A stretch of 64,000 bases of DNA from Thermoplasmata archaeon (GTDB lineage: Archaea > Thermoplasmatota > Thermoplasmata > GCA-020350865), in NCBI GenBank assembly GCA_020348445.1, contig CP070751.1, positions 279,672-343,671 of the forward strand. Direction: 5' to 3'. The position numbers and the translations under genes are program-made. Positions 25,737-58,129 of the stretch are shown piece after piece; the stretch's first letter is position 1, and each line of letters opens with the position of its first letter. Below the pieces are notes generated by a model. The model saw only the letters and a program-made list of their open reading frames with translations, did not search any database and was not told where the DNA came from.

Positions 25737-26114
25737 ATGAAGGAATTCAAGATTCAGGTAAAACACCAACCAGGAGAATTGGCAAAGGTAACAGAAACAC
25801 TTGCGGCAAGAGCAGTCAACATTAAGGCAATAGCCAGTGAAGCTTTGGGGGAGGACGCCTTCCTTAGGGTTGTGACCAATGATGTTAATACAACCACGAA
25901 AGCACTGAAAGAATCAGGGACAAAATATGTGCAGAACGATTTACTGACATTGTCGCTTATAGACAGGCCAGGAGAGTTGGCCAAGGTGGCCAAAAAACTG
26001 GGCAAGGCCAAGATAAACATAGAATCCATCTATATTTTGGGCCAAAAGGAGGGCAAAACAGAAGTGGCTTTGGTCGTGGATGATATGAAGAAGGCAAGCA
26101 ACCTTCTTGGTTAA
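25737..26114 (+). CDS. Tandem ACT-domain protein
   Basis: HQPGELAKV...NI and DRPGELAKVA...INI ACT signatures. Confidence 0.85.
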   Translation: MKEFKIQVKHQPGELAKVTETLAARAVNIKAIASEALGEDAFLRVVTNDVNTTTKALKESGTKYVQNDLLTLSLIDRPGELAKVAKKLGKAKINIESIYILGQKEGKTEVALVVDDMKKASNLLG

Positions 26115-26197: not shown

Positions 26198-27217
26198 ATG
26201 CATCTTTCAGATTTCGATTATCAGCTACCTACGCACTTAATAGCACAAAGACCTGCGGAACCAAGGGACTCCTCAAGGCTAATGGTCATGCAAAGGGACA
26301 TAATCGAGCATAAGAAATTTCGGGATTTAAAGGATTATTTAGATCGTGGAGACATTTTGATTCTCAACGATTCAAAGGTTTTGCCTGCCAGAATTTTCGG
26401 AAAAAAAGTGACAGGCGGGAAGGTGGAAGTTCTTTTAGTTACTAAAGAAGATGAATCTACTTGGGAATGCCTAATAAAAGGTAAAAACATAAAGGAAAAT
26501 ACACGCCTTTTTTTCGGGGATAATGAATTGGTAGGGAAAATAATGGAGAGAATCGAGGGAGGAAGATATAGGATAGAATTTGAAGCACAAAAAGATCTAG
26601 GGGAAATATTAAAGAGAATCGGAAAAATGCCAACCCCGCCTTACATAAAGGAGTTACTTTTGGATCAGGACAGATACCAGACTGTGTACGGTAAAGAAAA
26701 TGGTTCAATTGCCGCGCCTACGGCGGGTCTGCATTTTACTGAAGATTTTCTAGCACAGCTTCGCGAAAAGGGAGTGGTTATTACCCCTCTCACCCTCCAT
26801 GTCAGTGTGGGAACGTTTCTTCCCGTAAAGGTGAAATACATAAGGGAACACAAGATGGAACCTGAACTTTTTGAAATAGATAACAAAACTGCAAAAACCA
26901 TAAATTCAGCAAGGGAAGACAAGAAGAAAATAATTGCAGTTGGCACCACCACATTAAAGGCTCTTGAGAGTGCCTGCGATGATAATGGTAGAATTTCCGA
27001 AACAAAAGGAGAAAGCGATCTGTTTATTTATCCTGGCTACGAATTCAAGTTCAAATTGGATGGCCTTCTCACAAATTTTCATCTTCCTAAATCCACGCTT
27101 ATTATGCTCGTTTCAGCTTTTGCAGGAAAGGATACTATACTGGATTCTTATAACGTTGCCATAGAACATTCGTACAGATTCTACAGCTTTGGAGACGCCA
27201 TGTTGATATTAAAGTGA
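26198..27217 (+). CDS. queA: S-adenosylmethionine:tRNA ribosyltransferase-isomerase
   Basis: FDYQLP..LIAQ.P, NDSKV.PAR, PPYI, YQTVY, AAPTAGLHF, LHV..GTF, VGTT, TNFHLPKSTL, YRFYSFGDAM. Confidence 0.97.
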   Translation: MHLSDFDYQLPTHLIAQRPAEPRDSSRLMVMQRDIIEHKKFRDLKDYLDRGDILILNDSKVLPARIFGKKVTGGKVEVLLVTKEDESTWECLIKGKNIKENTRLFFGDNELVGKIMERIEGGRYRIEFEAQKDLGEILKRIGKMPTPPYIKELLLDQDRYQTVYGKENGSIAAPTAGLHFTEDFLAQLREKGVVITPLTLHVSVGTFLPVKVKYIREHKMEPELFEIDNKTAKTINSAREDKKKIIAVGTTTLKALESACDDNGRISETKGESDLFIYPGYEFKFKLDGLLTNFHLPKSTLIMLVSAFAGKDTILDSYNVAIEHSYRFYSFGDAMLILK

Positions 27218-28323
27218 TTATAATGTTCGAAATTGAATATGAGGACGAAAAGTCAGAGGCAAGGGCAGGAACATTAACCGTCAACAATAGAATCTTCGAA
27301 ACTCCTGGATTCCTACCTGTTGCCACAAAGGCAGATGTAAAGCTCATCTCCCCTGATGAGTTACAGGAGATCGGAGCTTCGGGAGTCATCACAAACGCCC
27401 TTGTTCTTTTCCTAAGACCGGGCCTTGAGGTAGTTGAAGCAGCAGGCGACATTCACAAGTTCATGTCATGGGACGGTATCGTCTTCTCGGACAGCGGCGG
27501 CTTTCAGATGCTCAACTCCGACTTTCTTGTGAAGGTCACAGAAGAACTAGTAACATTTAAATCACCATTTACAGGTTCCATACTTGATTTTTCCCCAGAA
27601 TTATGCGTTGAAATCCAGATGCGGTTAGGTTCTGATATTGCCATGGTACTTGACGACTGCCCTTCATATGGAAGCAGTTACGATGATATCTTAGCATCGA
27701 CAAAACGAACCCTTTTCTGGGCAAAGAGATTTAGAGATTCCCATAAAAACCAGTCCCAGGAAGTCTTTGGAATTGTCCAGGGCGGGGTGTTTAAGGATTT
27801 GAGGGATAATTGTGCAGAGAGTCTTGTAAAAATGGATTTTGACGGATACGCGATCGGGGGGCTTTGCATCGGTGAGCCCAAGGATGTGATGCACGAGGTA
27901 ATCCAGAAAACGACACCTCTTTTACCTCCCCAAAAACCCAGGTATTTAATGGGTGTGGGTTCCCCGGAGGACATGCTCAAGGCAATATCATGCGGGGTTG
28001 ACATCTTTGATTCTGTTTTTCCCACAAGAAACGCCAGGCACAACACTGTGTACACCAAGAACGGAAAGGTGAATTTGGGTAAGGAGAAGTTCAACTCGGA
28101 TATTGGGCCTATTGATGAAGGATGCAAGTGCTACACCTGCAGCAAGTTTTCACTGTCCTATGTAAATCATCTACTTCGGGAGTACGAGTACTTTGGCATG
28201 CGGTTGGCAACCATACACAACCTGCATTTTCTCGTGAATCTGATGAAGGAGGCAAGAGAGGCCATTTTAGAGGGAAGGTTCGAGGGATTTAAAGGGGAAT
28301 TTCTACAAAATTATAAATTTTAA
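27214..28323 (+). CDS. tgt: tRNA-guanine(34) transglycosylase, bacterial type
   Basis: DSGGFQ, LDDCP, GIVQGG, IGGL, RYLMGVG, DIFDSVFPTR, CxCxxC...HN zinc site. 369 aa with no archaeal C-terminal PUA extension. GTGA overlap with queA. Confidence 0.93.
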   Translation: MIIMFEIEYEDEKSEARAGTLTVNNRIFETPGFLPVATKADVKLISPDELQEIGASGVITNALVLFLRPGLEVVEAAGDIHKFMSWDGIVFSDSGGFQMLNSDFLVKVTEELVTFKSPFTGSILDFSPELCVEIQMRLGSDIAMVLDDCPSYGSSYDDILASTKRTLFWAKRFRDSHKNQSQEVFGIVQGGVFKDLRDNCAESLVKMDFDGYAIGGLCIGEPKDVMHEVIQKTTPLLPPQKPRYLMGVGSPEDMLKAISCGVDIFDSVFPTRNARHNTVYTKNGKVNLGKEKFNSDIGPIDEGCKCYTCSKFSLSYVNHLLREYEYFGMRLATIHNLHFLVNLMKEAREAILEGRFEGFKGEFLQNYKF

Positions 28324-28499: not shown

Positions 28500-31400
28500 A
28501 TGGAAAAAGTAAGAAAGAAGAGTTTTAATGGCAGATTTAAAAAAGGAATAACCACGGTGTTTATCACCATATTTTTAGTGTCTTCGATGTTTGTACCTTT
28601 GGATATGATGCAGGAAGCAAAAGCACATACAGGAGACAAGATCAGGTCTCCAATGACGACAACGCCACCAACAATAGATGGAAATTTCACTCCTGGGGAA
28701 TGGAACGATGCGGTAATGATCGATCTCACCACAATTCCTGGAAATATGGTGGGCTCATATATGTATGTCATGAACAACGACACTTGTCTTTTCATTCTTT
28801 ACGATGCTTTCGGTGATAATACCAATGATCCCATGGATGGCACGGCTGCGGGATTTGACACCAATCACGATGGAGTAAACGGCCCAAATGATGGTGATGA
28901 TGATTACTTTTACTTTGGCGGCCCCATGGTAGGCGAGGGACATTATGATTATAACATGCTTATTATGGATTGGCAGGAGCATTGCTCTCCGTTTTCAGAT
29001 CCTGGCCTCGCCGCGGCCATGGGATTCAACACAACACCCAACAGTGGCAGCGATCACAGAATATATGAATGGTCAATACCCTTGGATCAACTCGATGCAT
29101 CTCTTGGAGACATTATAGGTTTTGCAGCGGGCTGTCAATTAATGCCAGGCGTTTATGATGCCGATTCAGGCAACTATGACCAGTGGCCAGTGAATCTACC
29201 CCCAATTCCCCTGGATCAATACGGCAATTTAATTATAGGAGGCCCATACAACGTTGACATAAAACCAGAAAAACAGACAAAATATGGCCTTGCAGGGCAG
29301 GAAACCTCATATAAGTTAAGGATAAACAATACCGGAATCAACCCTGACATTTTTGACCTCACATACCTTTCATCTCTAGGGTGGAGTGTAACGTTTTACG
29401 ATGCCAGTTGGAATCCGCTGGTTGATAACGGAGGTGGCCCTGAGGTGGATACTGGATCCGTAGCAGCGAAAACTTCGGTTGTCATCCATGCTAACATCTC
29501 TGTTCCCCTTTTAGCAAATCCTGGTGACATCGATATCACGATAATACAGGGCAATTCATCCGGTGATCCCACTGTTAACGACACCACCAGCTTGAGAACG
29601 CAGGTGGTATACAATATAGACTGGTTCGATGGTTTCGAAGCTGGTTGGGATGCATGGACAGCGCAGGTCATTAGACCGAGTTTCCCCTCTCCAACAATAT
29701 GGGAGATAGGCGATCCCAGTGGAACAGGACCCGGCACAGCTTTCAATTACACCAACTGCTCCGGAACCAATATTAATGATGCTTATTACATGAATGCAGA
29801 CATCTGTTTAATTTCACCCTATGTCCAGCTTGGATCAGGATATCAAATATTATCGTTCTATCAATGGTATTATATGGATACAATGGGTGACGATGGCGGT
29901 TTCGTGGAGATATCAGTAAATGACAATCCCTGGGTACAGATCTGGCCAGATATAGAGTATCCATGGGTTGGTGGATATCTAGGTGGTTATAATACTGATG
30001 GCTACTCGGGAATAAGCAGTGGCTGGGAATATGATGAGTACGATTTAAGCCCATATGCAAACCAGGTCGTACGGGTGAGGTTCCACTTTGCAGCAAGCGA
30101 CTGGCATGGTGGGGACGACGGATGGTATATTGATGATGTTTTTATGGGCAGCCCGCCACCTTACAGACTCGATCTTGAACCAGATTACCAGATAGGAACC
30201 GGCAATGCAGGCACAGATGTGAGTTATGTTCTAACAGTTACAAATAATGGAGCCGACGATGACGCATACGATCTAAGTAGCGGAGGCACATGGGGCGTGA
30301 CCATAAGGGATATAACAGATACATGGGATATTTTCAGCATCTTCGTTGCCAGTGGCAACAGTGCTGACTTCATTGCTAAAGTGACAATACCGGGTTTAGC
30401 TTCTCCCGGAGATTTCGATGTTTCCTCCATCAAAGCCTCTTCCCAGAACGATACCTCAAAGAGTGAAAAGGCTGAGGTTGAAACCAATGTCCCTGAGATA
30501 CCTCCTTGGTTCGATGATATGGAATTTGGGCCTGGATGGTGGAAAAATCAAACAGACGGTGATGGCACTGAATGGCAATTGGGAGACCCCTCACTTGGAG
30601 CATACGGTCCTCCTAAATCCTATTCACCAATTAACTGCTGGGGAACGAACATAGCTTCCAACTACACAATTGGCGGGGAGTGCAATCTTACCACAGCCTA
30701 TATTGACCTTACATGGGCAGCAAATGCAAATCTATCTTTCTGGCACTGGTACGATATAAATGGTTTTTGGACTGATGGTGGATGGGTGGAGGTCAGTGAC
30801 GATTACGGCAGCACCTGGATACCCATCGAACCTTTGGGAGGTTACCCCGACATAAATGATTGGGGAATCCCTTGTTATGCAGGAAGCAGCGTTAAGTGGA
30901 TCAGGGCAGACTTCGACCTCTCTGATTATACAGGTTCCGTGATACAGCTTCGGTTCCACTTCCTAGATGCCGACTGGGACGGTGTGGAGCGTGCGGGATG
31001 GTACGTAGATGACATAATGATATATGCTTCTAAGTACGGAGTCGATATAGAACCTAATTCCTTTGGCTTTGGGGATGCCGGGGATACTGTCGAGTACATC
31101 CTTACCGTGACGAACACAGGTGATTTGGATGATTCGTTTACTCTTTCAGTTTCCGGAAATACTTGGCCCACCACGATATATGATTCTACTGGAACTTTTG
31201 TCATTACCAACACTGGTTTCTTGGGAGCTAATAACAGTATCGACATAATGATAAAGGTCGATATACCGATAGGAGCTAACCCGGGAGACTTCGACATTTC
31301 CAAAATCACGGCAACATCAGACAACGATACTGGGATGTTTGCCAGTGTAAGGCTGGATACTAACTATCCGGTTATGCCACTGTGGTTCGACGATATGGAG

Positions 31401-34400
31401 TCAGGGAAAGGAGGGTGGCGGCCATGGAACAACAATCGAGGCACTTCATGGCAGCTGGGCAATCCTTCTGGTTTTGGACCGGGTTCAGCCTATTCATTGC
31501 CTAACTGCTGGGGCACGAATTTAGTGACCGACTACACAACTTCCGCGGAAGCGACATTAAGAATGCCATATTTGGATCTGAGGCTGGCTCAGGAAGCTAA
31601 TTTGACATTCATGCACTGGTATGATATAAACGGTGTTTGGAATGATGGAGGTTGGGTGGAGGTGAGCCTTGATAATGGCCAAACATGGATGAGGATATAT
31701 CCTGAGGGCGGTTATCCTGATATCGATGGCAATTGGTTTGATGGTTGCTATGCCGGGACAACAGCGGCCTGGACAAAAGCTGAATTCAATCTTACAGCCT
31801 TCGTGGGAAATATCATACTCATTCGTTTCAGGCTCTATGATTACATGTGGGACGGTCCCATGGAGGGAGCCGGCTGGTACATCGACGATGTCAATGTATC
31901 AGCTACTTATCTTGCCTATGGCGTTGACCTGACCCCTGATATAGATTCTATAATCGCCTCTGACGGAACAAGTGTTCTTTATCTTATGACAGCAACCAAC
32001 ATGGGAACCGCAGGTCCAGACACATTCAATCTAAACTACCTGGCTATGCTTGGATGGTCGGCGGCATTCTATGATCTTTCAATGACTCCGATAACATCCG
32101 TAGGTCCCATTGACACCAGCAATTCAATGGATTTCTATGTGAATGTGACCATACCAATAGGAGAATTACCTGGAACCATTGAAAGGACCATAGTGATAGC
32201 AACCTCGCAAAACGATTCATCCTTCCCTCCAGCCGATGACAATTCATTTCTGTTCACACAGGTCCTTGCACCGATACTATTTGTAGATGATGATGGTGGT
32301 ATAGACACAGAGGCCAATTTCACTACAGCCTTAGATGATGGAGGTTATAGTTATAATGTGTGGAATTACCAGGTACTTGGCGAATTGAGTTTAAGTGATC
32401 TTCAACAACATGAAGTTATTATATGGGGAACTGGGAACACAGAAGATGATTTGACAGAGGGAACACTTACACCCACAGACAGGATGAACCTCGGTAATTA
32501 TTTGGATGGCGGTGGTCGCCTTTATCTCTCAAGTAGCCTTGCAGGTGCGGACGCAGTAAACTATTGGAGTGGAACCGATTTCTGGTTGTCATGGTACCAG
32601 ACCTATCTGCACTCCGACTTTGTTGATATTTTTGGAGGCCCCTCTACCATTAATGGAGTAACTTCGGATCCCATTAGCGATGGATTGAATTACAACCTCT
32701 ACCAAGGAGATTACAATCCAAACCTCATGCAGGTTTGGACTCACCACAACCCCGTAAATGATGGAATAACGTTTTTCACTGAACCCTGGCCTTCGAATGT
32801 TGCTACAAGAGCCGATACCGGGACCAACAGGGTCGTCTATACTGGATTCGATTTCTCTGCAGTTGACGGGGTCGCAAACAGGGCAACTTTAATGGACAGG
32901 ATTCTCAAGTGGTTGCTTTTCGGTGACTTGCCCTATGTAATCGAGACCGATCCCACCCATGGAGCCAGCGGAATTGTAGTTGATCAAGATGTGGTTGTAA
33001 TCTACTCCGAGAGTATGAACACGAGTGTGGAACCAACGTTATCGCAGGTTGGAGGCCCTGATCCAGGTGGATGGACGTTCTCGGGATGGTCCACAACCTA
33101 CATTACAGACGACACGGCTACCTGGACCCACAACAGCTGGTCACCCAGCCAGACTGTCAATATGAGCGTTTCAGGCGGCGAAGACTTAGAGGGGAATTCA
33201 GCATCTGAATATCTGTTCAACTTCACTATTGTCGCATCAGCTGATCCGTGGGCTTTTGCCACAGGACCCACATCAACTGGAACGAACGCGACTTTGCCGC
33301 AAATAACATACAATTTCGGTAACAGTCCCACGAACGTGCAGATATATTGGAGCAATGATGGCGGCAGCACCTGGAACATGTGGGGTTCAGATAATTCCGT
33401 GGACGGTTCATGGACCCCAGGCAGTCCATTATCAACGTCAGGTACATACTATTGGTCAGCCAGGGCAATGGGTGGTTCAAGCGAACCTCCACCTAGTGGG
33501 CCTGGAGACATCGAGGCAGGCCCATACGTTCTTGATATCGATGCACCCACGATATTTTCCACAGATCCTGTAGATGGGGCAACAGATGTGAGCACTGCCG
33601 CAGGGACTTATGTTATCGAATTCAGTGAGCCCATGAGTTTGACAGGTACAGATCCACTTTCAAATCTTCCGGGTATAATGTGGACCTGGGATTCTTCAGG
33701 TCTCTGGCTCAATGGAACATATACTGTTCTTTCATCAAGTACAACTTATTACGTGAACCTAACAGACCGGGGATTCATAGATGCAGCGGGCAACCATCTA
33801 ACAGGGGACATGTACAAGAATTTCACAACCATGTCAGTTCCCTGGGCCACTGCAACTGGTCCCACATCCTCAGGCACCAATGTTTCAACCCCCACGATCA
33901 CATATGATCAAACCGACGGTCCCACGAGTGTGGAGATATACTGGAGTGATAATGGAGGCACCACTTGGAACCTGTGGGGTACCGACTCAAGTGTAGACGG
34001 CTCCTGGTCACCAGGCAGTCCATTACCCGCCTCTGGAACATACTATTGGAGTGCGAGAGCAATAGGCCCTCCAAGTGAATCGGTTCCAATTGATTTCGGA
34101 GATATCGAGGCTGGCACTTATGTTCTTGATATAGATTCGCCCACGATTATTTCCACAACTCCTTTGGATGAGGCAACAGGTGTAAGTACTGCAGCAGGAA
34201 CTTATATTATCGAATTCATTGAACCCATGGCCTTGACTGGAACAGACCCACTTTCGGATCTTCCGGGAGTCTCTTGGAGCTGGGATCCCTTGGGCCTATG
34301 GCTTAACGGGACATATACTGCTCTTTCTCCCGGTACAACCTACTATGTCAATCTTACGGACCTAGGATTTACTGATGCGTATGGTAATCACCTTACAGGT

Positions 34401-37400
34401 GATATGTACAAGAATTTCACAACCACCTCTGATCCTTGGGCAACTGCAACAGGTCCCACATCCTCAGGCACCAATGATACCACCCCCACCATTACTTACG
34501 ATCAAGGCAACGGCCCGACGAGTGTAGAGATATACTGGAGTGATGATGGCGGTGCGTCTTGGAATCTGTGGGGTACCGACACAAGCGTTGACGGCTCTTG
34601 GACACCAGGCAGCCCATTACCTGCCTCCGGAACGTACTACTGGAGTGCAAGAGCAATAGGTATTCCAAATGAAACGATTCCAAGTGGTGTAGGGGATATC
34701 GAGGCAGACTTTTATGTTCTTGATATAGATGGACCGACGACATTCTCTACGACACCAGCAGATGGGGCAACAGGTGTTGACATCGCCGCGGGAACGTACG
34801 TTATCCAATTTAGCGAGCCAATGACCCTGGTGGGTACGCCTGATACCAATTTATCCATCATATCATGGATTTGGGATCCATCAGGTCTCTGGCTCAACGG
34901 GACTTATACAGGACTCATCTCTGGTGCGACATACTATGTCAATTTAACAGATTTAGGATTTACAGATGCGTATGGTAACCACCTCACAGGTGATATGTAC
35001 AAGAATTTCACAACAGCGGTAGGTGTCACAACTGCCAATGCAACAGGCCCCATAGGAGGCCCAACAAATGTCGCGGCAATCACGATTATCTACACCACAG
35101 CAGGAGGTCCGGCGACAGTGGATCTTTACTACACAATGAACACAACCGGACCATACATCTGGACATTAATCGGTACCGATATTTCAGTTGATGGCAATTT
35201 TGATTGGACAATACCAGCAGATGGATCATATGGTTGGCTCGCTGTCTCACCAGACGAGCCGGCGCCTACATCTTCTGATGCACCCGAGGCCTTCTGGTAC
35301 ATTTACGACGGCACACCACCTGAGGTCGTTAGCACTGATCCCGTAAACATGACAACTTCGATTTCAGTAGGCCAAGATATTGTGATCACCTTCAACGAGA
35401 CAATGAACAACGTTACCTTCACTTACACCATAGAGCCGAGCATAACAGGGCTCTTAGAAGTGTGGAGCGGCGGCAATACTATTTTAACTATCTCCCATGA
35501 TGACTTCCCAACAGGAACAAGAATCTGGGTGAACATATCAGTAGCAACCGACCTTGCAGGCAATAATTTGAGACCACGGCCGTACTGGTTCTACTTTGAC
35601 ACAGACAATTCTGCCACTGTGACAGGTCCAATCACAGTCACCCCAACAAATGATGACACGGTAACTATCACATACACTACTACAGGCAATCCGATCAGTG
35701 TTGATCTCTATTACACAACAAATTTGACTGCACCATATACCTGGACATTCATGGGCACCGATGACACCCCTGAAAATGGCTTTGGATGGCTCTTAGCTGT
35801 GGATGGCTCTTATGGTTGGTTTGCAAATTCCACTGATGAACTTCCACCCACATCAACAGATGCTCCAGAGGCATCGTACTACATCTATGATGGCACACCA
35901 CCTGAGGTGGAAAGTACAATCCCTGCAAACAAATCCACTGGTGTTCCAATTAACCAGGATATCGTGATTACATTTAACGAGACCATGGATATAGTCACTT
36001 TTACATACCAAATTGAACCAACTGTTACGGGCCTTATAGACACATGGAGTGCATTAAACTCGATTTTGACAATCTCTCATGATGACTTTGCACTTGATAC
36101 CAGGTATTGGGTGAACATTACATATGCTAGGGACTTGGCTGGTAACTTTCTAGACCCATATCCCTTACCCTACTCCATCTACTTCGATACTGCAACAACA
36201 GGGGCAGAGGCAACTGGTCCTGTAGGCGGCCCAACCAATGTATCTGATATCACGATCACCTACAATACAATTGGGGGACCTTCGAGAGTCTACCTTTGGT
36301 ACACCACAAATACAACTGCACCCTACACATGGATCCATTTTGCTACTGATGATCCTGCAGATGGCAGTTATGATTGGACAATTACAAGCGATGGATATTA
36401 CGGCTGGTTAGCAAATTCCACTGATGAACTTCCACCCACATCAACAGATGCACCTGAAAGTTCTTGGTACATATATGATGGTACACCACCTGCTGTTAAC
36501 AGCACAAACCCCGTCAATGCCACTATTGATGTTTTAACAACCCAGGACATCGTGATCACCTTCAATGAGACAATAAACAATGTTACATTCACTTACACAA
36601 TTGAACCATCTATTACTGTTCTCTCAGAGGTATGGAACAATGATGATAAAAATCTAACAATAACCCACGACGGCTTTGTAATTGCAACAAGATATTGGGT
36701 GAACATCACAGCGGCCATGGATTTGGCAGGAAACAATATGGTACCGTATTCATTCTACTTCGACACCACAACAACAGATATCGTTCCTCCCACAGTAATG
36801 ACAGGAACACCAACAGGCTCAAGCGTTCTCATCACCTCAAATATCGTAATCACATTTGACGAGGCCATGAACACTACATCTGTCAATAACGCATTCAGCT
36901 TCAATGATGGCATAACAACATGGGACATATCAGATGGGATGGTCAGTTGGAACGTTGCAAACACCATTATGACGTTCAATCCCACTGTGGACTTCGGCTA
37001 TTACACTCAATTCAATGTAACGATCGACGGAAGTATTGCAAAGGATGAGGCTGGCAACACCCTTGACGGTAATGACAACGGCACCTCGGAAGGCTCACCC
37101 ATCGACGATTATACATGGCAGTTCACAACCGAGTCGGCACCACCTCCTGATACAACGCCGCCCACTTCATCTGTTTCTGCCCTGCCCACCTACCATACTT
37201 CACTGAGCTTTTCGGTGAGCTACACAGCAACCGATACTCAAAACAACGTAATGGAGGTCGAACTATGGTTCAAGAAGGATAGCGGTGAATGGAATCTATA
37301 TAACACATACAGTGGAGGCTCAAATACAGTTACATTTACCGCAGATTCTGATGGAGTGTATTATTTCTATACAAGAGCAAGAGACGATGTCGTTCCTTCA

Positions 37401-38729
37401 AACTACGAGACTGAACCATCCTCTGAAGATGCTTTCACAACCGTGGACACCACCTTACCAACCGTCGATTCCGGCTCTGATACCATTGGAAATTCACAGT
37501 TCACCCGGGATGCAACTGCAAGCGACGCAGGCTCAGGCATAGCAACATATTCCTGGACAATGGTTTCCGGCCCTGGGACAATAACTTTCGGCACTCCCTC
37601 TGCTGAAGACACTACAATTAGTGCAGACACGGACGGCACATATGTTATCAGGCTTACTGTCACCGACAATGCTGGCCACAGCGCGTCCGATGAATTCACT
37701 CTTGACTGGGATGCCACACCACCTACAGTGTCAAGCAAAACTCCAACTGGAACGAACATATCAATTACTTCACTGATCTCAATTACTTTCAGTGAGACTG
37801 TGATTGAAACATCAGTTGAGAACGCCTTTACCTTTACAGATGGAACCACAACATGGTCAATTCTCAACGGCTCAGCAACTTGGGCTGACAGCACCATGAC
37901 CTTTGATCCTGATTTTGATCTAAGTCACGGAACCGCGTACACCGTTAACATCGGTTCTGGTGTCATTGACACATCAGGAAACACCATGACACCTTATCAC
38001 TGGACGTTTTCAACAGCAGAAGCCGTGGATACAACTGCACCCACTGTGGCAATTGTGAATCCCGTTGATGGGGCTGTAATTGACGTGACAAAAACGATCA
38101 TTATCACATTCAGTGAGGCAATGAATAAATCCTCGGTTGAGGCTGCGATCTCCATTTCCCCAGATGCGACTATCTCGGACTTTAGCTGGGAGGGCAACAC
38201 CTTGACCATAACCCTTGAATCTGATTTGGAGGCAGGCAAGGACTACACAGTGACAATTGGAACAGGTGCAAAGGATGCAGCAGGAAATGCTCTTGAAGAA
38301 CCTTATACCTGGCAGTTCACCACAGAGAAAGCGGGTGAGAAAGAGCCTGAGGAAGATACGTCATGGTTATTCATACTCCTCATCGTGATAGTGATCATAG
38401 TGATATTGCTGCTTCTATTCCTCATGAAGAAGAAAAAGCCAGAGGAAGAAGAAAGGCCGCCTGAAGGACTGGGCGAAGGAGCAGTGGAGGAAGAGATGCC
38501 AGAGGAAACTCCTGAAGGGGAAGGTGCAGAGGTGGAAGGAGAAGAAGGGCCAGAAGGGATAGAAGGTGTAGAAGAGGCAAAAGGGACAGAAGAAGGGCCA
38601 AAAGAAACTCCCGAAGGAGAAGGTGAAGCAGTAGAAAAAGCACCAGAGGAATTATCAGAAGAAACAGGTGAGAAGGAAGGCGAAGCTCCCAAGTCTTCTG
38701 AGGAAAAAAAGGAGCCTGAGGAGATATAG
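28500..38729 (+). CDS. Giant (3409 aa) secreted, membrane-anchored surface protein with repeated jelly-roll and Ig-like domains
   Basis: AGGAGG SD and signal peptide (…QEAKA). Three WYIDD-ending jelly-roll domains alternate with Ig domains. Many Big_5-like 'P.V.ST.P...ITF.E.M' repeats. TM at ~38360-38425, then a Glu-rich tail. Confidence 0.9.
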   Translation: MEKVRKKSFNGRFKKGITTVFITIFLVSSMFVPLDMMQEAKAHTGDKIRSPMTTTPPTIDGNFTPGEWNDAVMIDLTTIPGNMVGSYMYVMNNDTCLFILYDAFGDNTNDPMDGTAAGFDTNHDGVNGPNDGDDDYFYFGGPMVGEGHYDYNMLIMDWQEHCSPFSDPGLAAAMGFNTTPNSGSDHRIYEWSIPLDQLDASLGDIIGFAAGCQLMPGVYDADSGNYDQWPVNLPPIPLDQYGNLIIGGPYNVDIKPEKQTKYGLAGQETSYKLRINNTGINPDIFDLTYLSSLGWSVTFYDASWNPLVDNGGGPEVDTGSVAAKTSVVIHANISVPLLANPGDIDITIIQGNSSGDPTVNDTTSLRTQVVYNIDWFDGFEAGWDAWTAQVIRPSFPSPTIWEIGDPSGTGPGTAFNYTNCSGTNINDAYYMNADICLISPYVQLGSGYQILSFYQWYYMDTMGDDGGFVEISVNDNPWVQIWPDIEYPWVGGYLGGYNTDGYSGISSGWEYDEYDLSPYANQVVRVRFHFAASDWHGGDDGWYIDDVFMGSPPPYRLDLEPDYQIGTGNAGTDVSYVLTVTNNGADDDAYDLSSGGTWGVTIRDITDTWDIFSIFVASGNSADFIAKVTIPGLASPGDFDVSSIKASSQNDTSKSEKAEVETNVPEIPPWFDDMEFGPGWWKNQTDGDGTEWQLGDPSLGAYGPPKSYSPINCWGTNIASNYTIGGECNLTTAYIDLTWAANANLSFWHWYDINGFWTDGGWVEVSDDYGSTWIPIEPLGGYPDINDWGIPCYAGSSVKWIRADFDLSDYTGSVIQLRFHFLDADWDGVERAGWYVDDIMIYASKYGVDIEPNSFGFGDAGDTVEYILTVTNTGDLDDSFTLSVSGNTWPTTIYDSTGTFVITNTGFLGANNSIDIMIKVDIPIGANPGDFDISKITATSDNDTGMFASVRLDTNYPVMPLWFDDMESGKGGWRPWNNNRGTSWQLGNPSGFGPGSAYSLPNCWGTNLVTDYTTSAEATLRMPYLDLRLAQEANLTFMHWYDINGVWNDGGWVEVSLDNGQTWMRIYPEGGYPDIDGNWFDGCYAGTTAAWTKAEFNLTAFVGNIILIRFRLYDYMWDGPMEGAGWYIDDVNVSATYLAYGVDLTPDIDSIIASDGTSVLYLMTATNMGTAGPDTFNLNYLAMLGWSAAFYDLSMTPITSVGPIDTSNSMDFYVNVTIPIGELPGTIERTIVIATSQNDSSFPPADDNSFLFTQVLAPILFVDDDGGIDTEANFTTALDDGGYSYNVWNYQVLGELSLSDLQQHEVIIWGTGNTEDDLTEGTLTPTDRMNLGNYLDGGGRLYLSSSLAGADAVNYWSGTDFWLSWYQTYLHSDFVDIFGGPSTINGVTSDPISDGLNYNLYQGDYNPNLMQVWTHHNPVNDGITFFTEPWPSNVATRADTGTNRVVYTGFDFSAVDGVANRATLMDRILKWLLFGDLPYVIETDPTHGASGIVVDQDVVVIYSESMNTSVEPTLSQVGGPDPGGWTFSGWSTTYITDDTATWTHNSWSPSQTVNMSVSGGEDLEGNSASEYLFNFTIVASADPWAFATGPTSTGTNATLPQITYNFGNSPTNVQIYWSNDGGSTWNMWGSDNSVDGSWTPGSPLSTSGTYYWSARAMGGSSEPPPSGPGDIEAGPYVLDIDAPTIFSTDPVDGATDVSTAAGTYVIEFSEPMSLTGTDPLSNLPGIMWTWDSSGLWLNGTYTVLSSSTTYYVNLTDRGFIDAAGNHLTGDMYKNFTTMSVPWATATGPTSSGTNVSTPTITYDQTDGPTSVEIYWSDNGGTTWNLWGTDSSVDGSWSPGSPLPASGTYYWSARAIGPPSESVPIDFGDIEAGTYVLDIDSPTIISTTPLDEATGVSTAAGTYIIEFIEPMALTGTDPLSDLPGVSWSWDPLGLWLNGTYTALSPGTTYYVNLTDLGFTDAYGNHLTGDMYKNFTTTSDPWATATGPTSSGTNDTTPTITYDQGNGPTSVEIYWSDDGGASWNLWGTDTSVDGSWTPGSPLPASGTYYWSARAIGIPNETIPSGVGDIEADFYVLDIDGPTTFSTTPADGATGVDIAAGTYVIQFSEPMTLVGTPDTNLSIISWIWDPSGLWLNGTYTGLISGATYYVNLTDLGFTDAYGNHLTGDMYKNFTTAVGVTTANATGPIGGPTNVAAITIIYTTAGGPATVDLYYTMNTTGPYIWTLIGTDISVDGNFDWTIPADGSYGWLAVSPDEPAPTSSDAPEAFWYIYDGTPPEVVSTDPVNMTTSISVGQDIVITFNETMNNVTFTYTIEPSITGLLEVWSGGNTILTISHDDFPTGTRIWVNISVATDLAGNNLRPRPYWFYFDTDNSATVTGPITVTPTNDDTVTITYTTTGNPISVDLYYTTNLTAPYTWTFMGTDDTPENGFGWLLAVDGSYGWFANSTDELPPTSTDAPEASYYIYDGTPPEVESTIPANKSTGVPINQDIVITFNETMDIVTFTYQIEPTVTGLIDTWSALNSILTISHDDFALDTRYWVNITYARDLAGNFLDPYPLPYSIYFDTATTGAEATGPVGGPTNVSDITITYNTIGGPSRVYLWYTTNTTAPYTWIHFATDDPADGSYDWTITSDGYYGWLANSTDELPPTSTDAPESSWYIYDGTPPAVNSTNPVNATIDVLTTQDIVITFNETINNVTFTYTIEPSITVLSEVWNNDDKNLTITHDGFVIATRYWVNITAAMDLAGNNMVPYSFYFDTTTTDIVPPTVMTGTPTGSSVLITSNIVITFDEAMNTTSVNNAFSFNDGITTWDISDGMVSWNVANTIMTFNPTVDFGYYTQFNVTIDGSIAKDEAGNTLDGNDNGTSEGSPIDDYTWQFTTESAPPPDTTPPTSSVSALPTYHTSLSFSVSYTATDTQNNVMEVELWFKKDSGEWNLYNTYSGGSNTVTFTADSDGVYYFYTRARDDVVPSNYETEPSSEDAFTTVDTTLPTVDSGSDTIGNSQFTRDATASDAGSGIATYSWTMVSGPGTITFGTPSAEDTTISADTDGTYVIRLTVTDNAGHSASDEFTLDWDATPPTVSSKTPTGTNISITSLISITFSETVIETSVENAFTFTDGTTTWSILNGSATWADSTMTFDPDFDLSHGTAYTVNIGSGVIDTSGNTMTPYHWTFSTAEAVDTTAPTVAIVNPVDGAVIDVTKTIIITFSEAMNKSSVEAAISISPDATISDFSWEGNTLTITLESDLEAGKDYTVTIGTGAKDAAGNALEEPYTWQFTTEKAGEKEPEEDTSWLFILLIVIVIIVILLLLFLMKKKKPEEEERPPEGLGEGAVEEEMPEETPEGEGAEVEGEEGPEGIEGVEEAKGTEEGPKETPEGEGEAVEKAPEELSEETGEKEGEAPKSSEEKKEPEEI
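33240..36770 (+). repeat. Six tandem ~195-200-codon units inside the giant gene (two subtypes of three)
   Basis: Units begin at ~33240, 33840, 34435 (PWA.ATGPTS.GTN) and ~35035, 35615, 36205 (A..TGP....TN). A 41-bp identical stretch is seen at 35823 and 36411. Confidence 0.85.
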
Positions 38730-50874: not shown

Positions 50875-51828
50875 TTAGTCCCTCACTCCTTCCTCACAGA
50901 GCGTAACCACGGCTTCTCCATCCGGAAGACTGGGGGAATCCACAAGCCTGCAAATTCTTTTTCCGCCCTTGCTTTTTCTCATGTAGATTCTGAATGTTGC
51001 TGTGTGTCCCACGATATGACCGCCGATGGGTCTTGTTGGGTCGCCGAAAAACGCATCAGGTTTGGCGGAAACCTGGTTCGTAACGAGAATCACAGCGTTG
51101 TTCAAATCAGCGAACCTCTGAAGGTCGTGCATGTGCCTGTTCAGCTTCTGCTGGCGCTCGGCCAATGCTCCCCTGCCGATGTACTCTGCACGAAAATGAG
51201 CAGTAAGTGAATCCACAATAAGAAGTTTAACAGGAAATTCCTTTGCAAGGGCCTTTGCCCGGTCCATCAAAAGCATCTGATGATGGGAATTAAATGCCCT
51301 TGCGACATGTACATTTGTTAAGGCTTCCTGGGGATCCAAATCCAGGGCTCCTGCGATCTGTACTATCCTTTCAGGTCTGAAGGTGTTCTCTGTATCTATC
51401 ATCAAGGCATGACCTCCCAGACCGCCCTGATCCTCTGGTAACTGGACATTCACAGCCAGCTGATGCGCAATCTGGGTTTTTCCGGAGCCAAACTCCCCAT
51501 AAAGCTCGATAATCGCCTGGCTCTCAAATCCTCCGCCCAACAGTTCATCCAGGGCCTTTACTCCGGATGTGAGCTTTCCAACTGCCTTTCTTCTCTCAAG
51601 GAGTGCATCCCCTGTTTCGAAGTTTCCGATATCTGCCTCCCTCTTTGCTAGGTTGATGATTTTATTGGCAGTGGCCTCGCCTATCTCCGCCATCTCAGCA
51701 AGGTTCTTTGGAGACTCCACGGCTATGGTCATCAGGTCCGAGTAACCTGCCTCTCTCAATTTTTCCGCAGTTGCTGGTCCTACTCCTGGCAACTCATCTA
51801 TTTTCATTTCTTCGGTCATTTTATTCAC
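50875..51828 (-). CDS. radA: DNA repair and recombination protein RadA
   Basis: Hh[11 protein letters not shown], Walker [45 protein letters not shown]. No intein. Confidence 0.97.
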
Positions 51829-51980: not shown

Positions 51981-53138
51981 CTATGTAACAATCTCCTCCA
52001 CCTTGTCCATCTCAATTGCACGCCTGACCTCCATGGCCACTCTTCTTCCTGTGCTTAGATTGATTCTCCAAAGCGTATTGCCGTACGGATGCCCCACCGA
52101 CATGTGGACATTGGTTCCGCCTCCAACCCTTGGCGCGACATCGTAGATAAAGAAGTCAAGATCCTTGTCAACACAGGTCTGCAAACAGAAAGGCCCTATT
52201 ATTCCTGGAGGATGATGTTCCCGGGTCGCCTCAACGTACTTCTCTGCAAGCGGGAAAACCTTCTCCAAAAGGGATTCACGAAGCGTTGCACTGTTGTGGC
52301 CGCAAACTGTATACTCGGGGTTCATCTGCTCCTCGGCTAGCTCCATCTGCTGAGGTGCAGGCAACCTCACATGCCCGTCTAAGCTGGTTTCGAATCGCCA
52401 GTCAACCCCGATAAGCTCGATTTTCGCATTCGATTTCTCGATAGGTGAATAAAAGAAATCGAAGTTGAATACAGGCCCTAGGATATAGCGTTCGATCCTA
52501 GCATTTTTCAAAGCCTCTTCAGTTATCACGTTCTGTTTCAATAGTTGTTCTGATTTCTTTAGATATTCATTATAAGATGAGGCACTAAAAAATCCACGCT
52601 CCAGTTTTTTGACTGCATGATGTAGTTTTATGATGCTGAGTTCCTTAATTTCCTCTGGATTTTCAACCTTATCGGGGAAGGGTAGTCCAGCCTTTTCCAA
52701 AAGCCAGTAGTAATCCTGTTTTTCTCCCCTTTCCTCTGTTCTTAAGAGGTTTCTGCTCCCCACCATGGGCACCCTGAAATCATTTTCTATCTCGTCCAAA
52801 CCTATGTAGGACGAAAATGACCTGTTTGGTATGAAAAGAGCGTTCTCATCAATTAACATCCTTTGATTCTCGGTTTTCATGATCTCCTTGAACTTGTCGT
52901 ATATCACAGCCTTATCCACCACACCCCTTACTATATTTCCATTTCCATCCCTTTCGGCAAGAAAGTATTTGTTGTAGGTTTTCTCCCTGCCCCTCTGGCA
53001 AATGACAAGGGTCTCAAATCCTTCTTCTATTGCACCATCACAGACATCCAGTGCCGAATGGGATGCGATCATCCCAAGCTTTGCCTTATCTAGGTCATAC
53101 TCCTTTAAAACTTCCTTTATCTCATCTCTTTCAATCAT
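51981..53138 (-). CDS. purP: PurP family ATP-grasp formate-AICAR ligase (FAICAR synthetase or paralog)
   Basis: ASHSALD, IPNRSF, ERGFF, HVRLPA, GIIGPFCLQ, APRVGGGTN. Confidence 0.85.
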   Translation of the reverse strand: MIERDEIKEVLKEYDLDKAKLGMIASHSALDVCDGAIEEGFETLVICQRGREKTYNKYFLAERDGNGNIVRGVVDKAVIYDKFKEIMKTENQRMLIDENALFIPNRSFSSYIGLDEIENDFRVPMVGSRNLLRTEERGEKQDYYWLLEKAGLPFPDKVENPEEIKELSIIKLHHAVKKLERGFFSASSYNEYLKKSEQLLKQNVITEEALKNARIERYILGPVFNFDFFYSPIEKSNAKIELIGVDWRFETSLDGHVRLPAPQQMELAEEQMNPEYTVCGHNSATLRESLLEKVFPLAEKYVEATREHHPPGIIGPFCLQTCVDKDLDFFIYDVAPRVGGGTNVHMSVGHPYGNTLWRINLSTGRRVAMEVRRAIEMDKVEEIVT

Positions 53139-53779: not shown

Positions 53780-56700
53780 TCATGTGCCCACAAAAATGAA
53801 CTTGGTTTGGCCACTTGTGGAAATCTGATAACCTTCACCCATCACAACATCAACATCGTATACCCCCTCTAGCATTCTCGTAGAATGCCAACCCCATCGA
53901 TACTCTGAATAGATATAATAGTTGATTCCCACCGTGTTTTCTATATTCTGGCAGTACCAATTTACGCTTTGATCAGCAGCAAGTTTTAAAGGCATGCTTA
54001 GGGTATCATAACCAGAATCATAAGAAGCAGTCCAAACACCGATGCTGTAGCTGGAAACTCCCCTTTCACCCGTACTTTGGTTCACAGGCACGATAACATA
54101 GTAATACTCTGTTTCGGGGATTGCTGCCTGCCGGTCCTTGAACGTGGTCGTGTCAATGGACAGGCTTGCGATCTGCTCATAGTCCTGATCCAAGTTGCCC
54201 CAGAATCCATCCCTTTTTGCGGAACGCAAAACGAAAAACCTATCATCTGAACCTATGTTTGTAGGTTGGGCCCAGCTTAAGGTGATTGTCCCATAGTTGT
54301 CCACAGAGGCAGTCAAGGAGTCTGCATCGCCATTTATATGGCTTGTATCAAAACCAAATGGGGTGTTTTCGTATTGGATCATAGCCCCGGGCATACCGCA
54401 AAATGTATATGTTGTAGGATACGAGAACATTGCCTCGTAACCCTCTCCTACTACCATATCTGTATTATTATGTTGACAATCTCCAGAATTATGCCGAACC
54501 CAACGATGATCTGATCCCATCCATTTGATATATCCTGCCCTCATGTCTGTGGAGTACCACTCAACATCGCGCGTTTGCAGAGGTTCCAAAGGCAAAGAAA
54601 AAGTGTTCAGATAACCAACAAACTGCGAGGTCCATTTTCCAACTGTTCTGCTTGTTGCGCTGACCTTTCCATCGATACTAATGGCTCTTATAATGTAGTA
54701 ATATTGCTGCCGATAATTATCCTCTCCAGGCTTGGCTGCATAGGTATCGTTCCAAGTTGTTCTTTTCGGTATGATCCCATTATCGTCATGTGAATCGGTA
54801 CGCTTCCAAGGTTGCGAGAAGTCAAATTCGGTTTGACTTTCTGATCTGTAGATAAGATAATATGCCATTGTTTTTGCATTTGGAGTTGTCCATGAAAGTC
54901 GAATGTTGTCCCCTAATCCGTTAACACGACCTTTATCATCCACAACTGTAATTGACAACGTGGGAGGTTTTGGGTCCGGTGTTTTCACGGTGATCATGGT
55001 CTTTGGAAAGAGTCGCATAACAGGGGTATCAGCCCAATTGTTGTAACTTATTCTCGATTGCGTGAAGTTGTTGGCCTCCCGGTAACCAGGATTTAAGGAT
55101 GTTATATCGAAATCTACGGTCCACGTTTCTCCAATAAAAAGACTGCTTAAGTTCCATTCAAGGATCGTATACCCTAAATCATTTACATAAATATAATCAG
55201 GTGCAATTGAAAAGCTCCCAGGGACATAGTCTATATCTGGGGGTAAAACATCTCTTACCAAGGGATTTGAATCTGATGGATCAGGGTCGTAACCCGCCAT
55301 CTTGTATACTATAGTGGTCAACTCATCATAAATGGCCCTGAATTTATCGATTGAGTCCACAGGGAAGTATTGCGCCCCTGTGATTCTTGCGATTTCCTTT
55401 AATAGCTTACTATCTTGCGAGCCACTTAAATCCAGGGTAAATATAAAAGTCCTGTTCTCCCGGGCCCAATACGCCACAGTTTCTGGGTCCAGATCCCCGT
55501 TCCAACCCCCGTCTGTAAACAGGATTATGATATGATTATGATCACTTCGACCATTTGCATTCAACTCTTGCAGGGCTTCGAGCAGGGCTTCACCCATGTA
55601 TGTGAACTCCCCGACCCCGGGTATATTTTCGATATTAGTTTTGAGTCTATTGTAATTGCTGGTCAAAGAATTCATCAGCACAACATCGGTATCGAAATGC
55701 ATAATTGCTCCCCTATCAGGGGAACTCATGTTCTCCACATATTCTATAGCAATCTCTTTTGCGAATTCAATATCACCAGGCAGCATGCTGTTTGATCTGT
55801 CGATTACAAGGACAACATCTTGGGGAAGGTCCTTTTCTATACCAAATCCCCTTCCTGTGACGTTCAATGTTATGGTGGCCTTCTCAGGGGAGCCATATCC
55901 AAGAACATTGATGTGGGTGGGGGTGACGTGCTTCAAAGGCAAAAGATAAGGATAGAACCTAGTTTGAACCAAGGCCGAGGATTGGATTGAGGGATTTGAA
56001 TTTGCCTTTACTGTAACGATGGTATCACCGGAATCTCCTGATAATTCGGATTGTAGTATGGAGATCTTTACAGAAATATCTACAAAGGAAAGAGCAGCAA
56101 CAGAAATATCTGGAGCACCATCGGAATCTGAATCAGTTATCTTTGTTAGCTTATCTTCTTCATAAAACTCGATTATCCAATTTGGAAGGGATTGATAAAA
56201 CAAATCGACAAGTTCTCCTGTGTCCATTTTGTTTGTTATCTTTAAATCGTACCACAATACATCACTCGGTTCTCCAAATTTATATTGACTTACAGGACTT
56301 ATTTGTAAAAAAGGTATGGAGGGCTCCGAATCAAATACCCATCCTGCCTGCCCTGATGTAAAATCATTATAACCTTGATAGGCGCCCATGCCGTCAGGGA
56401 TCCTCTTTATAGTCTTGTCCACTTGATGTGCAGAATTCCAACCAACCATATCGAGCAAGGAGCCGTAATTATCGTAAAGGTATACATTATCAGAGGATTT
56501 GGATAGATGTCCATTGTCAAATAACATGGGAGCATCGTCTCTAAATATTATATAGTAAGGATCATCTGGCTTCAAAATATAGCTTTCTGTTATGGAAAAT
56601 ATATTGTCTGTTGCTATTGTAAAACCATTCAGGTCAATGGACGTTGAACCAATGTACATCAATTCTATGAATCCATCTTCAGGCTCAGAGGGATTGAACA

Positions 56701-58129
56701 TGACCTCGTTCATAACAACATCCGGCTCTAATGTTATGGAATTATCAACACTATTTCGTTGCCCGAAGGTCATACCCTCCAGGCTGTGCACCCAGTCCTT
56801 GATATTTACCCTTGAAATCGAGCCATAAACCGCATCATCAACTGGATCCGGGGCTATACCTTCCTGTCCAAATGCTACTTCATCGTACTTAGTTCCCGAA
56901 AAGATATCATAAAGCCCGATGGTGTCCCCTTCGGTGCTGTCAAAGGCATCGTTTCCATTTAAAGTCCAAACACTAAAACCTTCTTTTGGTATGGGATTAA
57001 CATCCCAAGTTCCACCTAACCAGTATCCTAAACCGCCATTTACAGAGAGCCTGATATTTGTCAAATACTGGGGAGTTGAAGCGATATTCTGTATCTCGAT
57101 GCACTTTGTGCCCTCATCTGAGATTTCTGAGATGACCAAAGCCCTCGGAAGATAAAAATTTCTTGCCCTCTCAATAGCCTCCACAAGATCGGCAAAGGAT
57201 GTTGCACCCGCCACAATCAAGGCTCTGGATACGCTCTCTTTGGCTGGTAGTGTAAGGCCCTGATTCCCACTCTCATCATCAGTCCAGCCAACGACACATC
57301 CAAGGTCATTGTGATGTCCTGATACATAAGGGGATGAAGTGATCGCATTGTAGATGTCGCTATCCTGGAACAGATCGTTATTTGGGCCATCCCAATATAG
57401 ATTGACAGGCAACCCCAAGTCTGCGGAAGCAAAACCCATGTAGGTTGAGGAACCCGAATCCTTGATGTAGTATATTTTATATGTTGAATTCCAATGTGCC
57501 TTATCATCGAAATTGTCGCCCCCTACACAGGCATAATATCTAAGACCGAACCTAACCTCAGTTAAATCTGAGTCATAGAGATTCAGAATCTGCCACTGGA
57601 TTATACCCCATTTTTCATCCTGCTTGCTCCACGCCGTTTGAAATACCCTTATATCCTTTGCTTGTCCGTTGATATCTGCATCCTTAGTAAATGATCCATA
57701 ACTCTTATCCACTGTACCATCCTCTAAAAACGAGATAGGTACGTCCTCTGCCAAAGTGTTGAATTCAGGGGAATATTTGCCTGGGATGTATTTTCTTCCT
57801 GTTGCTATATCACCGGTACCATAATGGAGATATTGTGACTGGTCAAAAAAGAAAAAGGTTTCGTCAAGCCATCCATCTTCTTCGTCACTTTGTTGGACCC
57901 CCAGATAGTTCATGCAAAACGGCAGCGCTGCATGGCTATCGACCCGAAAAGTAAGATTTCCAGCATCATGCAAAAGCTCTATTGTCTCTGCTTTTGCGCA
58001 AGGCATAAAAAACATTTCAACTCCAAACATCCCGAACGTTGTACTGAAAATTATAAGTGTTATCATCATTGATACTGATAATTTCCTGAATCTCTTCATC
58101 GAATATCTTATATAGGTTCCAAGAAGCAT
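53780..58129 (-). CDS. Secreted 1449-aa modular protein: two lamin-tail-like domains, VWA domain, shared C-terminal module
   Basis: Signal peptide from ~58099, ISEISD/MNEVMFNP...FIEL, VWA DRSNS...T...FTDG, no C-terminal TM. Confidence 0.85.
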   Translation of the reverse strand: MLLGTYIRYSMKRFRKLSVSMMITLIIFSTTFGMFGVEMFFMPCAKAETIELLHDAGNLTFRVDSHAALPFCMNYLGVQQSDEEDGWLDETFFFFDQSQYLHYGTGDIATGRKYIPGKYSPEFNTLAEDVPISFLEDGTVDKSYGSFTKDADINGQAKDIRVFQTAWSKQDEKWGIIQWQILNLYDSDLTEVRFGLRYYACVGGDNFDDKAHWNSTYKIYYIKDSGSSTYMGFASADLGLPVNLYWDGPNNDLFQDSDIYNAITSSPYVSGHHNDLGCVVGWTDDESGNQGLTLPAKESVSRALIVAGATSFADLVEAIERARNFYLPRALVISEISDEGTKCIEIQNIASTPQYLTNIRLSVNGGLGYWLGGTWDVNPIPKEGFSVWTLNGNDAFDSTEGDTIGLYDIFSGTKYDEVAFGQEGIAPDPVDDAVYGSISRVNIKDWVHSLEGMTFGQRNSVDNSITLEPDVVMNEVMFNPSEPEDGFIELMYIGSTSIDLNGFTIATDNIFSITESYILKPDDPYYIIFRDDAPMLFDNGHLSKSSDNVYLYDNYGSLLDMVGWNSAHQVDKTIKRIPDGMGAYQGYNDFTSGQAGWVFDSEPSIPFLQISPVSQYKFGEPSDVLWYDLKITNKMDTGELVDLFYQSLPNWIIEFYEEDKLTKITDSDSDGAPDISVAALSFVDISVKISILQSELSGDSGDTIVTVKANSNPSIQSSALVQTRFYPYLLPLKHVTPTHINVLGYGSPEKATITLNVTGRGFGIEKDLPQDVVLVIDRSNSMLPGDIEFAKEIAIEYVENMSSPDRGAIMHFDTDVVLMNSLTSNYNRLKTNIENIPGVGEFTYMGEALLEALQELNANGRSDHNHIIILFTDGGWNGDLDPETVAYWARENRTFIFTLDLSGSQDSKLLKEIARITGAQYFPVDSIDKFRAIYDELTTIVYKMAGYDPDPSDSNPLVRDVLPPDIDYVPGSFSIAPDYIYVNDLGYTILEWNLSSLFIGETWTVDFDITSLNPGYREANNFTQSRISYNNWADTPVMRLFPKTMITVKTPDPKPPTLSITVVDDKGRVNGLGDNIRLSWTTPNAKTMAYYLIYRSESQTEFDFSQPWKRTDSHDDNGIIPKRTTWNDTYAAKPGEDNYRQQYYYIIRAISIDGKVSATSRTVGKWTSQFVGYLNTFSLPLEPLQTRDVEWYSTDMRAGYIKWMGSDHRWVRHNSGDCQHNNTDMVVGEGYEAMFSYPTTYTFCGMPGAMIQYENTPFGFDTSHINGDADSLTASVDNYGTITLSWAQPTNIGSDDRFFVLRSAKRDGFWGNLDQDYEQIASLSIDTTTFKDRQAAIPETEYYYVIVPVNQSTGERGVSSYSIGVWTASYDSGYDTLSMPLKLAADQSVNWYCQNIENTVGINYYIYSEYRWGWHSTRMLEGVYDVDVVMGEGYQISTSGQTKFIFVGT

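Follow-up and report, generated by a model that had tools for sequence, protein, structure and literature searches.

The stretch of DNA analysed here, 64,000 nucleotides from a Thermoplasmata archaeon (positions 279,672 to 343,671 of contig CP070751.1, assembly GCA_020348445.1; hereafter the window), carries two adjacent genes of the bacterial-type queuosine (Q) pathway, queA and tgt. Textbooks treat queuosine as bacterial and eukaryotic, and archaeosine as archaeal. An earlier note, made from the sequence alone, had proposed a bacterial-type queA and a preQ1-type tgt in an archaeal chromosome, and profile cut-offs, conserved motifs and the archaeal nature of the contig all support that proposal. 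The queA gene (26198..27217, + strand) encodes a 339-amino-acid protein predicted from its profile matches to be the tRNA preQ1(34) S-adenosylmethionine (SAM) ribosyltransferase-isomerase. The tgt gene (27214 or 27223..28323, + strand, depending on the start codon) encodes a predicted bacterial-type tRNA-guanine(34) transglycosylase of 369 amino acids from GTG 27214 or 366 from ATG 27223.

QueA is complete, as had been claimed. In profile searches it scores 443.3 bits against NF001140 (cut-off 324), with residues 1–338 covered, and 402.9 bits against TIGR00113 (cut-off 267.45); it matches PF02547 over its full length at 425 bits, and QueA from Bacillus subtilis (PDB 1yy3), end to end, at 349 bits. 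Tgt scores 442.3 bits against the curated equivalog model TIGR00430 (cut-off 306.75) and only 145.8 bits against the archaeosine transglycosylase (arcTGT) model TIGR00432, well below the cut-off of 350. End-to-end alignments were obtained with Tgt from Thermotoga maritima (2ash, 347 bits) and Escherichia coli (10fb, 344 bits).

Tgt contains the motifs DSGGFQ, LDDCP, IVQGG, GGLCIGE, IFDSV (with the nucleophile Asp) and CKCYTC...H, and DSGGFQ, LDDCP, IFDSV and CKCYTC...TIHNL fall in identical columns of the alignment with the T. maritima and E. coli enzymes. We take D102, D156 and D280 of the Zymomonas mobilis enzyme to be the catalytic aspartates, C158 and V233 to be the pocket positions, and CxCxxC...H to be the zinc site; on that numbering every catalytic Asp motif and the zinc site are present. 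The pocket is of the preQ1 type that the earlier note had recognised, with the Cys of LDDCP at the 158-type position and the Ile of GGLCIGE at the 233-type position, where bacterial Tgt has Val (GGLSVGE). Eukaryotic queuine enzymes have Val at the 158-type and Gly at the 233-type position. All archaeal Tgt copies compared retain the pocket and catalytic motifs, and no pocket differences were found between copies from QueF-containing and QueF-less archaea, all of which are preQ1-type. The archaeal copies share FDS beside the nucleophile Asp, in contrast to FDC in bacterial copies.

The two genes are tightly coupled whichever start codon is used. The GTGA overlap described previously exists, but the 369-residue protein that would begin within it is less well favoured: ATG 27223, 5 nt past the QueA stop codon, is more likely to be the start of tgt, because the sequence that it encodes (MFEIEY...) begins as the homologues do. 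The identity and intactness of QueA and Tgt, and the conservation of their catalytic residues, are established.

The genome is a metagenome-assembled genome (MAG) of 5.16 Mb, made up of approximately 360 pieces joined by runs of N, with a completeness of 81.7% and an estimated contamination of 3.8%. Such an assembly raises the question of whether the pair could come from a mis-binned bacterial contig or a chimeric assembly. The window is the final 64 kb of a 153.7-kb piece, and the archaeal hallmark genes radA (50875-51828) and purP (51981-53138) lie in it about 24 kb from the gene pair. The GC content over queA-tgt (0.426) is close to that of the genome (0.415), which elsewhere contains an archaeal small-subunit rRNA fragment and intron-bearing tRNAs. 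The gene order, including a gene for a double-ACT-domain protein upstream of queA, is shared by three further MAGs from this genus and by members of other families. The same genes also occur on closed archaeal chromosomes: the closed MAG CP070767.1 carries queA-tgt with the archaeal resolvase gene hjc directly after tgt, and a closed genome of a class relative (1,486,778 bp) encodes a QueA identical letter for letter to that of Aciduliprofundum boonei T469 (Aboo_1294/WP_008083824.1). The archaeal copies, moreover, form a clade of their own (see below). The earlier judgement that contamination is unlikely is thus upheld; contamination or chimerism of the contig is effectively excluded, and we attach almost no probability to an artefact.

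Phylogenetic trees were built from the 80 most similar genome loci, found by scanning prokaryote genomes at one per species, together with the copies from relatives; they are quick maximum-likelihood searches with SH-aLRT (Shimodaira-Hasegawa-like approximate likelihood ratio test) support, and their bacterial rows are the nearest ones only. The archaeal clade that the earlier note had suggested looking for was recovered for both proteins. In the QueA tree, 14 archaeal rows lie on one side of a branch with SH-aLRT support of 98, and 74 bacterial rows plus one unlabelled Saccharibacteria row lie on the other. The archaeal rows comprise the window, four Thermoplasmata families, a Thermoplasmata MAG, a Methanobacteriota MAG, Methanoperedens and a Woesearchaeote. 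In the Tgt tree, 11 archaeal rows group with support of 100 and form the same subclades as in the QueA tree. The sole exception within the archaeal QueA clade is a long-branched sequence from a Neisseriaceae MAG from sheep omasum (JAFWTP010000126.1; locus L101:5989-7020), placed in an unresolved part of the tree. Mis-binning was considered for this sequence and ruled out, the contig being truly bacterial (Lnt, an OmpR-type two-component system); it could reflect transfer from archaea to bacteria, kinship with the donor or an artefact.

Within the genus, the nonsynonymous distance (dN) is 0.15–0.26 and the synonymous distance (dS) is saturated; where dN/dS can be computed, it is 0.10–0.12 for QueA and 0.04–0.08 for Tgt. 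Because the archaeal clades are congruent and dN/dS is low, the pair appears to be an old acquisition that has been inherited and maintained. The sequence comparisons indicate that queA and tgt probably originated in bacteria long ago, moved together, have long resided in archaea and still function. An alternative is that the genes are a non-functional remnant left by a transfer and now decaying. QueA loss is indeed seen in the class: family f8 has remnant or fragmentary QueA matches, and one of these contains an in-frame stop codon. Both open reading frames (ORFs) in the window are full length, however, and they retain all catalytic residues at dN/dS values of 0.04–0.12, so that a relic is highly improbable here.

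The earlier note had placed the final reductase and the source of preQ1 outside the window. The reductase was found elsewhere in the genome: QueH (PF02677, 209 bits; G000:C1:5095080-5095595), a member of the cobalamin-independent epoxyqueuosine reductase family, is encoded on a piece that also encodes HdrA2. No genome match to QueG reached the cut-off, with only weak ferredoxin-domain matches below it. An ATP-binding cassette (ABC) transporter of the NitT/TauT family (ATPase, permease and binding protein) lies about 1.4 kb from queH (G000:C1:5097000-5099800; L110:10003-12806). The neighbours of queH were considered as functional clues and set aside, as they are not conserved outside the genus.

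The archaeosine pathway is also encoded. A search for a separate arcTGT, which had been proposed as a check, returned a true arcTGT (TgtA, 651 amino acids, 575 bits) together with ArcS (489 bits), and the preQ0 synthesis gene queC adjoins queE. Of the other proposed candidates, QueF, QPTR/YhhQ and QueT were not found. A PF14489 search for QueF came back empty in this 82%-complete genome, and no QPTR/YhhQ, QueT/QrtT, HlyIII or ureide permease was found in it, MFS-type (major facilitator superfamily) importers not having been examined. HlyIII and ureide permease are among three newer importer families (PMC11130926). The preQ1-I riboswitch (RF00522) was not found; the search for the preQ1-III riboswitch (RF02680) carries no information, since its control gave no match anywhere.

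All four tRNAs with GUN anticodons (Asp, Asn, His and Tyr) are present in the genome. Their genes contain introns beside the anticodon (tRNA-His, -Tyr, -Asp and -Asn at G000:C1:797551-797755, 2737555-2737673, 4223106-4223201 and 4350262-4350356), and exchange of G34 would therefore have to follow splicing. A separate array of 13 short intron-less tRNA genes in 2.8 kb (G000:C1:4640736-4643566, outside the window), for Thr, Met, His, Asp, Asn, Tyr, Phe, Gly (twice), Ala, Val, Cys and Glu, contains further copies of the GUN tRNAs, whose other genes in the genome all have introns. It resembles the tRNA array of a virus or mobile element, or could be contamination.

QueA is found in all five genomes of the genus and in 20 of 41 genomes of the class, among which QueH occurs in 19, Tgt above the bacterial cut-off in 17, and QueF above its own cut-off in 10. 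In a sample drawn evenly over the phylum Thermoplasmatota, 58 of 151 genomes (approximately 38%) encode QueA. The sample includes 101 high-quality genomes, of which 33 have QueA, and 95 genera, of which 41 have it. The earlier statement that queuosine in archaea is at most sporadically predicted was therefore overstated, the more so as the gene from the cultured A. boonei has long been annotated as QueA and the trait was published for archaea in 2021. Five families of the class (f10, f12, f13, f14 and f16) have all four genes for Tgt, QueA, QueH and QueF. A. boonei T469 likewise has QueA (Aboo_1294), Tgt, QueH and QueF, dispersed over its closed chromosome. Four families, namely that of the window (f1, five genomes), f2, f15 and f19, have Tgt, QueA and QueH without QueF.

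In the QueF-less family f15 and in the closed MAG CP070767.1, queA-tgt is preceded by yhhQ, encoding QPTR, and the double-ACT gene (G029:C56:7222-10287, G018:C1:213655-216719, G039:C24:17923-20987 and L025:4873-8101). Only these two have QPTR, and in both it is clustered with queA-tgt; the genus of the window has the same order without yhhQ. The yhhQ-ACT-queA-tgt cluster is the signature of a putative archaeal operon for salvage of the Q precursors preQ1 or preQ0.

Taken together, these observations make it probable that queA and tgt form the functional core of a queuosine (Q34) pathway of bacterial type, permanently resident in an archaeal lineage. What the enzymes do, which tRNAs they act on, what the end product is and that preQ1 is salvaged are inferred. 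Tgt would exchange G34 of the spliced GUN tRNAs (tRNA-Asp, -Asn, -His and -Tyr) for preQ1; QueA would then transfer and isomerise the ribosyl moiety of SAM onto the aminomethyl group to give epoxyqueuosine, which QueH, encoded elsewhere, would reduce to queuosine. The pathway is predicted to run parallel to native archaeosine formation, in which QueC and QueE would contribute to preQ0 and arcTGT and ArcS would act at G15. The pair would have come from bacteria long ago and now be inherited in Thermoplasmatota, with related copies in Methanoperedens and Woesearchaeota. Because QueF is missing in the genus and order of the window, we propose that preQ1 is most likely scavenged there from the surrounding community via an importer of some kind, as happens in many bacteria without QueF.

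Several points weigh against a working Q pathway. No paper showing Q in archaeal tRNA was found in the literature searched, which agrees with the earlier remark that it is not biochemically established in archaea. No source of preQ1 was found in the genome among QueF and the four importer families listed above, at the completeness and within the scope already stated. With abundant preQ0 of its own and no QueF, moreover, the cell might load preQ0 at position 34, where QueA could not use it. This last point is the basis of the main rival, in which the base that Tgt places at G34 is endogenous preQ0 or some other 7-deazaguanine, Q is not reached, and QueA and QueH have a different or only conditional role. 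The preQ0 synthesis genes are present, QueF is absent from all six genomes of the order examined (80–91% complete), and bacterial Tgt is established to accept preQ0; E. coli queF mutants have preQ0 in their tRNA. In contrast, four QueF-less families retain intact QueA and QueH under strong purifying selection, and to our knowledge neither protein has a use without preQ1-tRNA. Salvage is also suggested by a sister QueF-less lineage, whose queA-tgt cluster includes the gene for a QPTR importer. We therefore regard preQ0 loading with a stalled pathway as rather unlikely, though the most serious competitor to the Q34 pathway proposed above.

A further alternative would have the pathway run de novo, with QueF or one of the known importers encoded in the unassembled part of the genome, roughly 18%. 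In favour of this explanation are the incompleteness of the MAG, the small size of the QueF gene and its presence in the five class families listed above. The absence of QueF from the six order genomes speaks against it, as does the failure to find QueF in three f15 genomes (94–95% complete) or in the f19 genome, which is 98% complete; tblastn searches of the genome of the window with QueF proteins from class relatives returned nothing below E = 1. An unassembled QueF or known importer is accordingly unlikely, and less likely than preQ0 loading. It is possible, and we suggest it tentatively, that the order depends on a component yet to be described, either a new preQ1 importer or a preQ0 reductase not homologous to QueF. 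By its position, the NitT/TauT-type ABC system beside queH could be a candidate for such an importer.

The closest known systems are the bacterial queA-tgt pairs (E. coli, B. subtilis and T. maritima; PDB 10fb, 2ash, 1yy3 and 1vky), which have the same two enzymes in the same order and close adjacency. The window copies are 45–53% identical to bacterial copies and share with them the catalytic Asp residues, the zinc site and the preQ1-type pocket. Unlike the bacterial pairs, they reside in a host that also has archaeosine genes, belong to their own clade, have FDS in place of FDC, and occur in a genome in which neither QueF nor QueG was found by the searches above and QueH is the reductase. 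Compared with arcTGT (TgtA from Pyrococcus horikoshii, PDB 1iq8), the window Tgt shares the TIM barrel of the TGT superfamily and the base-exchange chemistry; it lacks the C-terminal C1–C3/PUA domains, scores 146 bits where the arcTGT model requires 350, and coexists with a separate TgtA.

Bacteria that salvage preQ1 have no QueF and combine Tgt, QueA and QueG or QueH with a QPTR/YhhQ or QueT importer (PMC5372724, PMC11130926). The genome of the window has the same Tgt, QueA and reductase without QueF, and f15 and CP070767.1 even have yhhQ in the cluster. It differs from these bacteria in that the four importer families searched were not found and in that, unlike most of them, it encodes its own preQ0 synthesis (QueC/QueE). 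Complete or partial bacterial queuosine pathways with QueA, QueH-like and Tgt proteins have been reported in 34 archaeal genomes, including those of DPANN and Methanosarcinales (Castelle et al. 2021, PMC8204110). Those archaea have the same bacterial-type enzymes, for the last three steps only, and the Methanoperedens and Woesearchaeota copies share a clade with that of the window. The present case differs in that the host belongs to the Thermoplasmata, the trait is widespread (58/151 in the phylum), queH is not co-localised, and a double-ACT gene precedes queA.

The trait as such is thus already published for other archaea, and the A. boonei gene carries the QueA name in databases; in the literature searched, no papers linking queuosine to Thermoplasmatota lineages were found. 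What is worth carrying forward is its breadth in Thermoplasmatota, where more than a third of the sampled genomes of a whole archaeal phylum have it, together with the existence of a cultured organism for tests and the question of how preQ1 is supplied in the order of the window. Queuosine and archaeosine gene sets occur in one cell and would draw on the same preQ0 chemistry. A. boonei T469, with its full QueF-Tgt-QueA-QueH set, is an organism in which archaeal queuosine can be sought, and the QueF-less order without the searched importers marks a gap in knowledge of how Q precursors are acquired.

The gene upstream of queA (25737..26114, + strand) encodes a stand-alone double-ACT-domain protein of 125 amino acids (Pfam ACT/ACT_8) and ends 83 nt before queA. 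It lies directly upstream of queA in f1, f15 and CP070767.1, and in the latter two it stands between yhhQ and queA. The protein is more conserved than QueA. Given its position between yhhQ and queA in the sister lineages, it might bind or sense a 7-deazaguanine base; such a sensing role is possible, though unsupported. We considered the double-ACT protein as a general member of the Q module and rejected this, since homologues also occur in QueA-less families and 75 of 80 metagenome double-ACT loci have none of QueA, Tgt, YhhQ, QueC, QueE, QueH, arcTGT or ArcS nearby; queA follows the double-ACT gene only in the five closest homologues (76–87% identity) among the 80. Its membership in the module is doubtful, and it is best treated as a lineage-specific conserved neighbour. 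In one QueA-less family, a double-ACT homologue lies directly upstream of the arcTGT gene (G026:C23:7788-9365), a single case.

The remainder of the window is rich in surface-related genes. A long glycosylation and cell-envelope cluster (473-22156) encodes GT1, GT2 and GT4 glycosyltransferases, UDP-glucose/GDP-mannose dehydrogenases, a UDP-GlcNAc 2-epimerase, a polysaccharide deacetylase and methyltransferases. Immediately 3' of tgt, a 3409-amino-acid ORF (28500-38729) with seven Big_5 immunoglobulin-like domains, two InhA-like MAM domains and one PKD domain presumably encodes a giant protein of the cell surface. Other large proteins of surface type are encoded at 53780-58129 (VWA, LTD), 58688-60835 (fn3) and 61047-63737 (CARDB).

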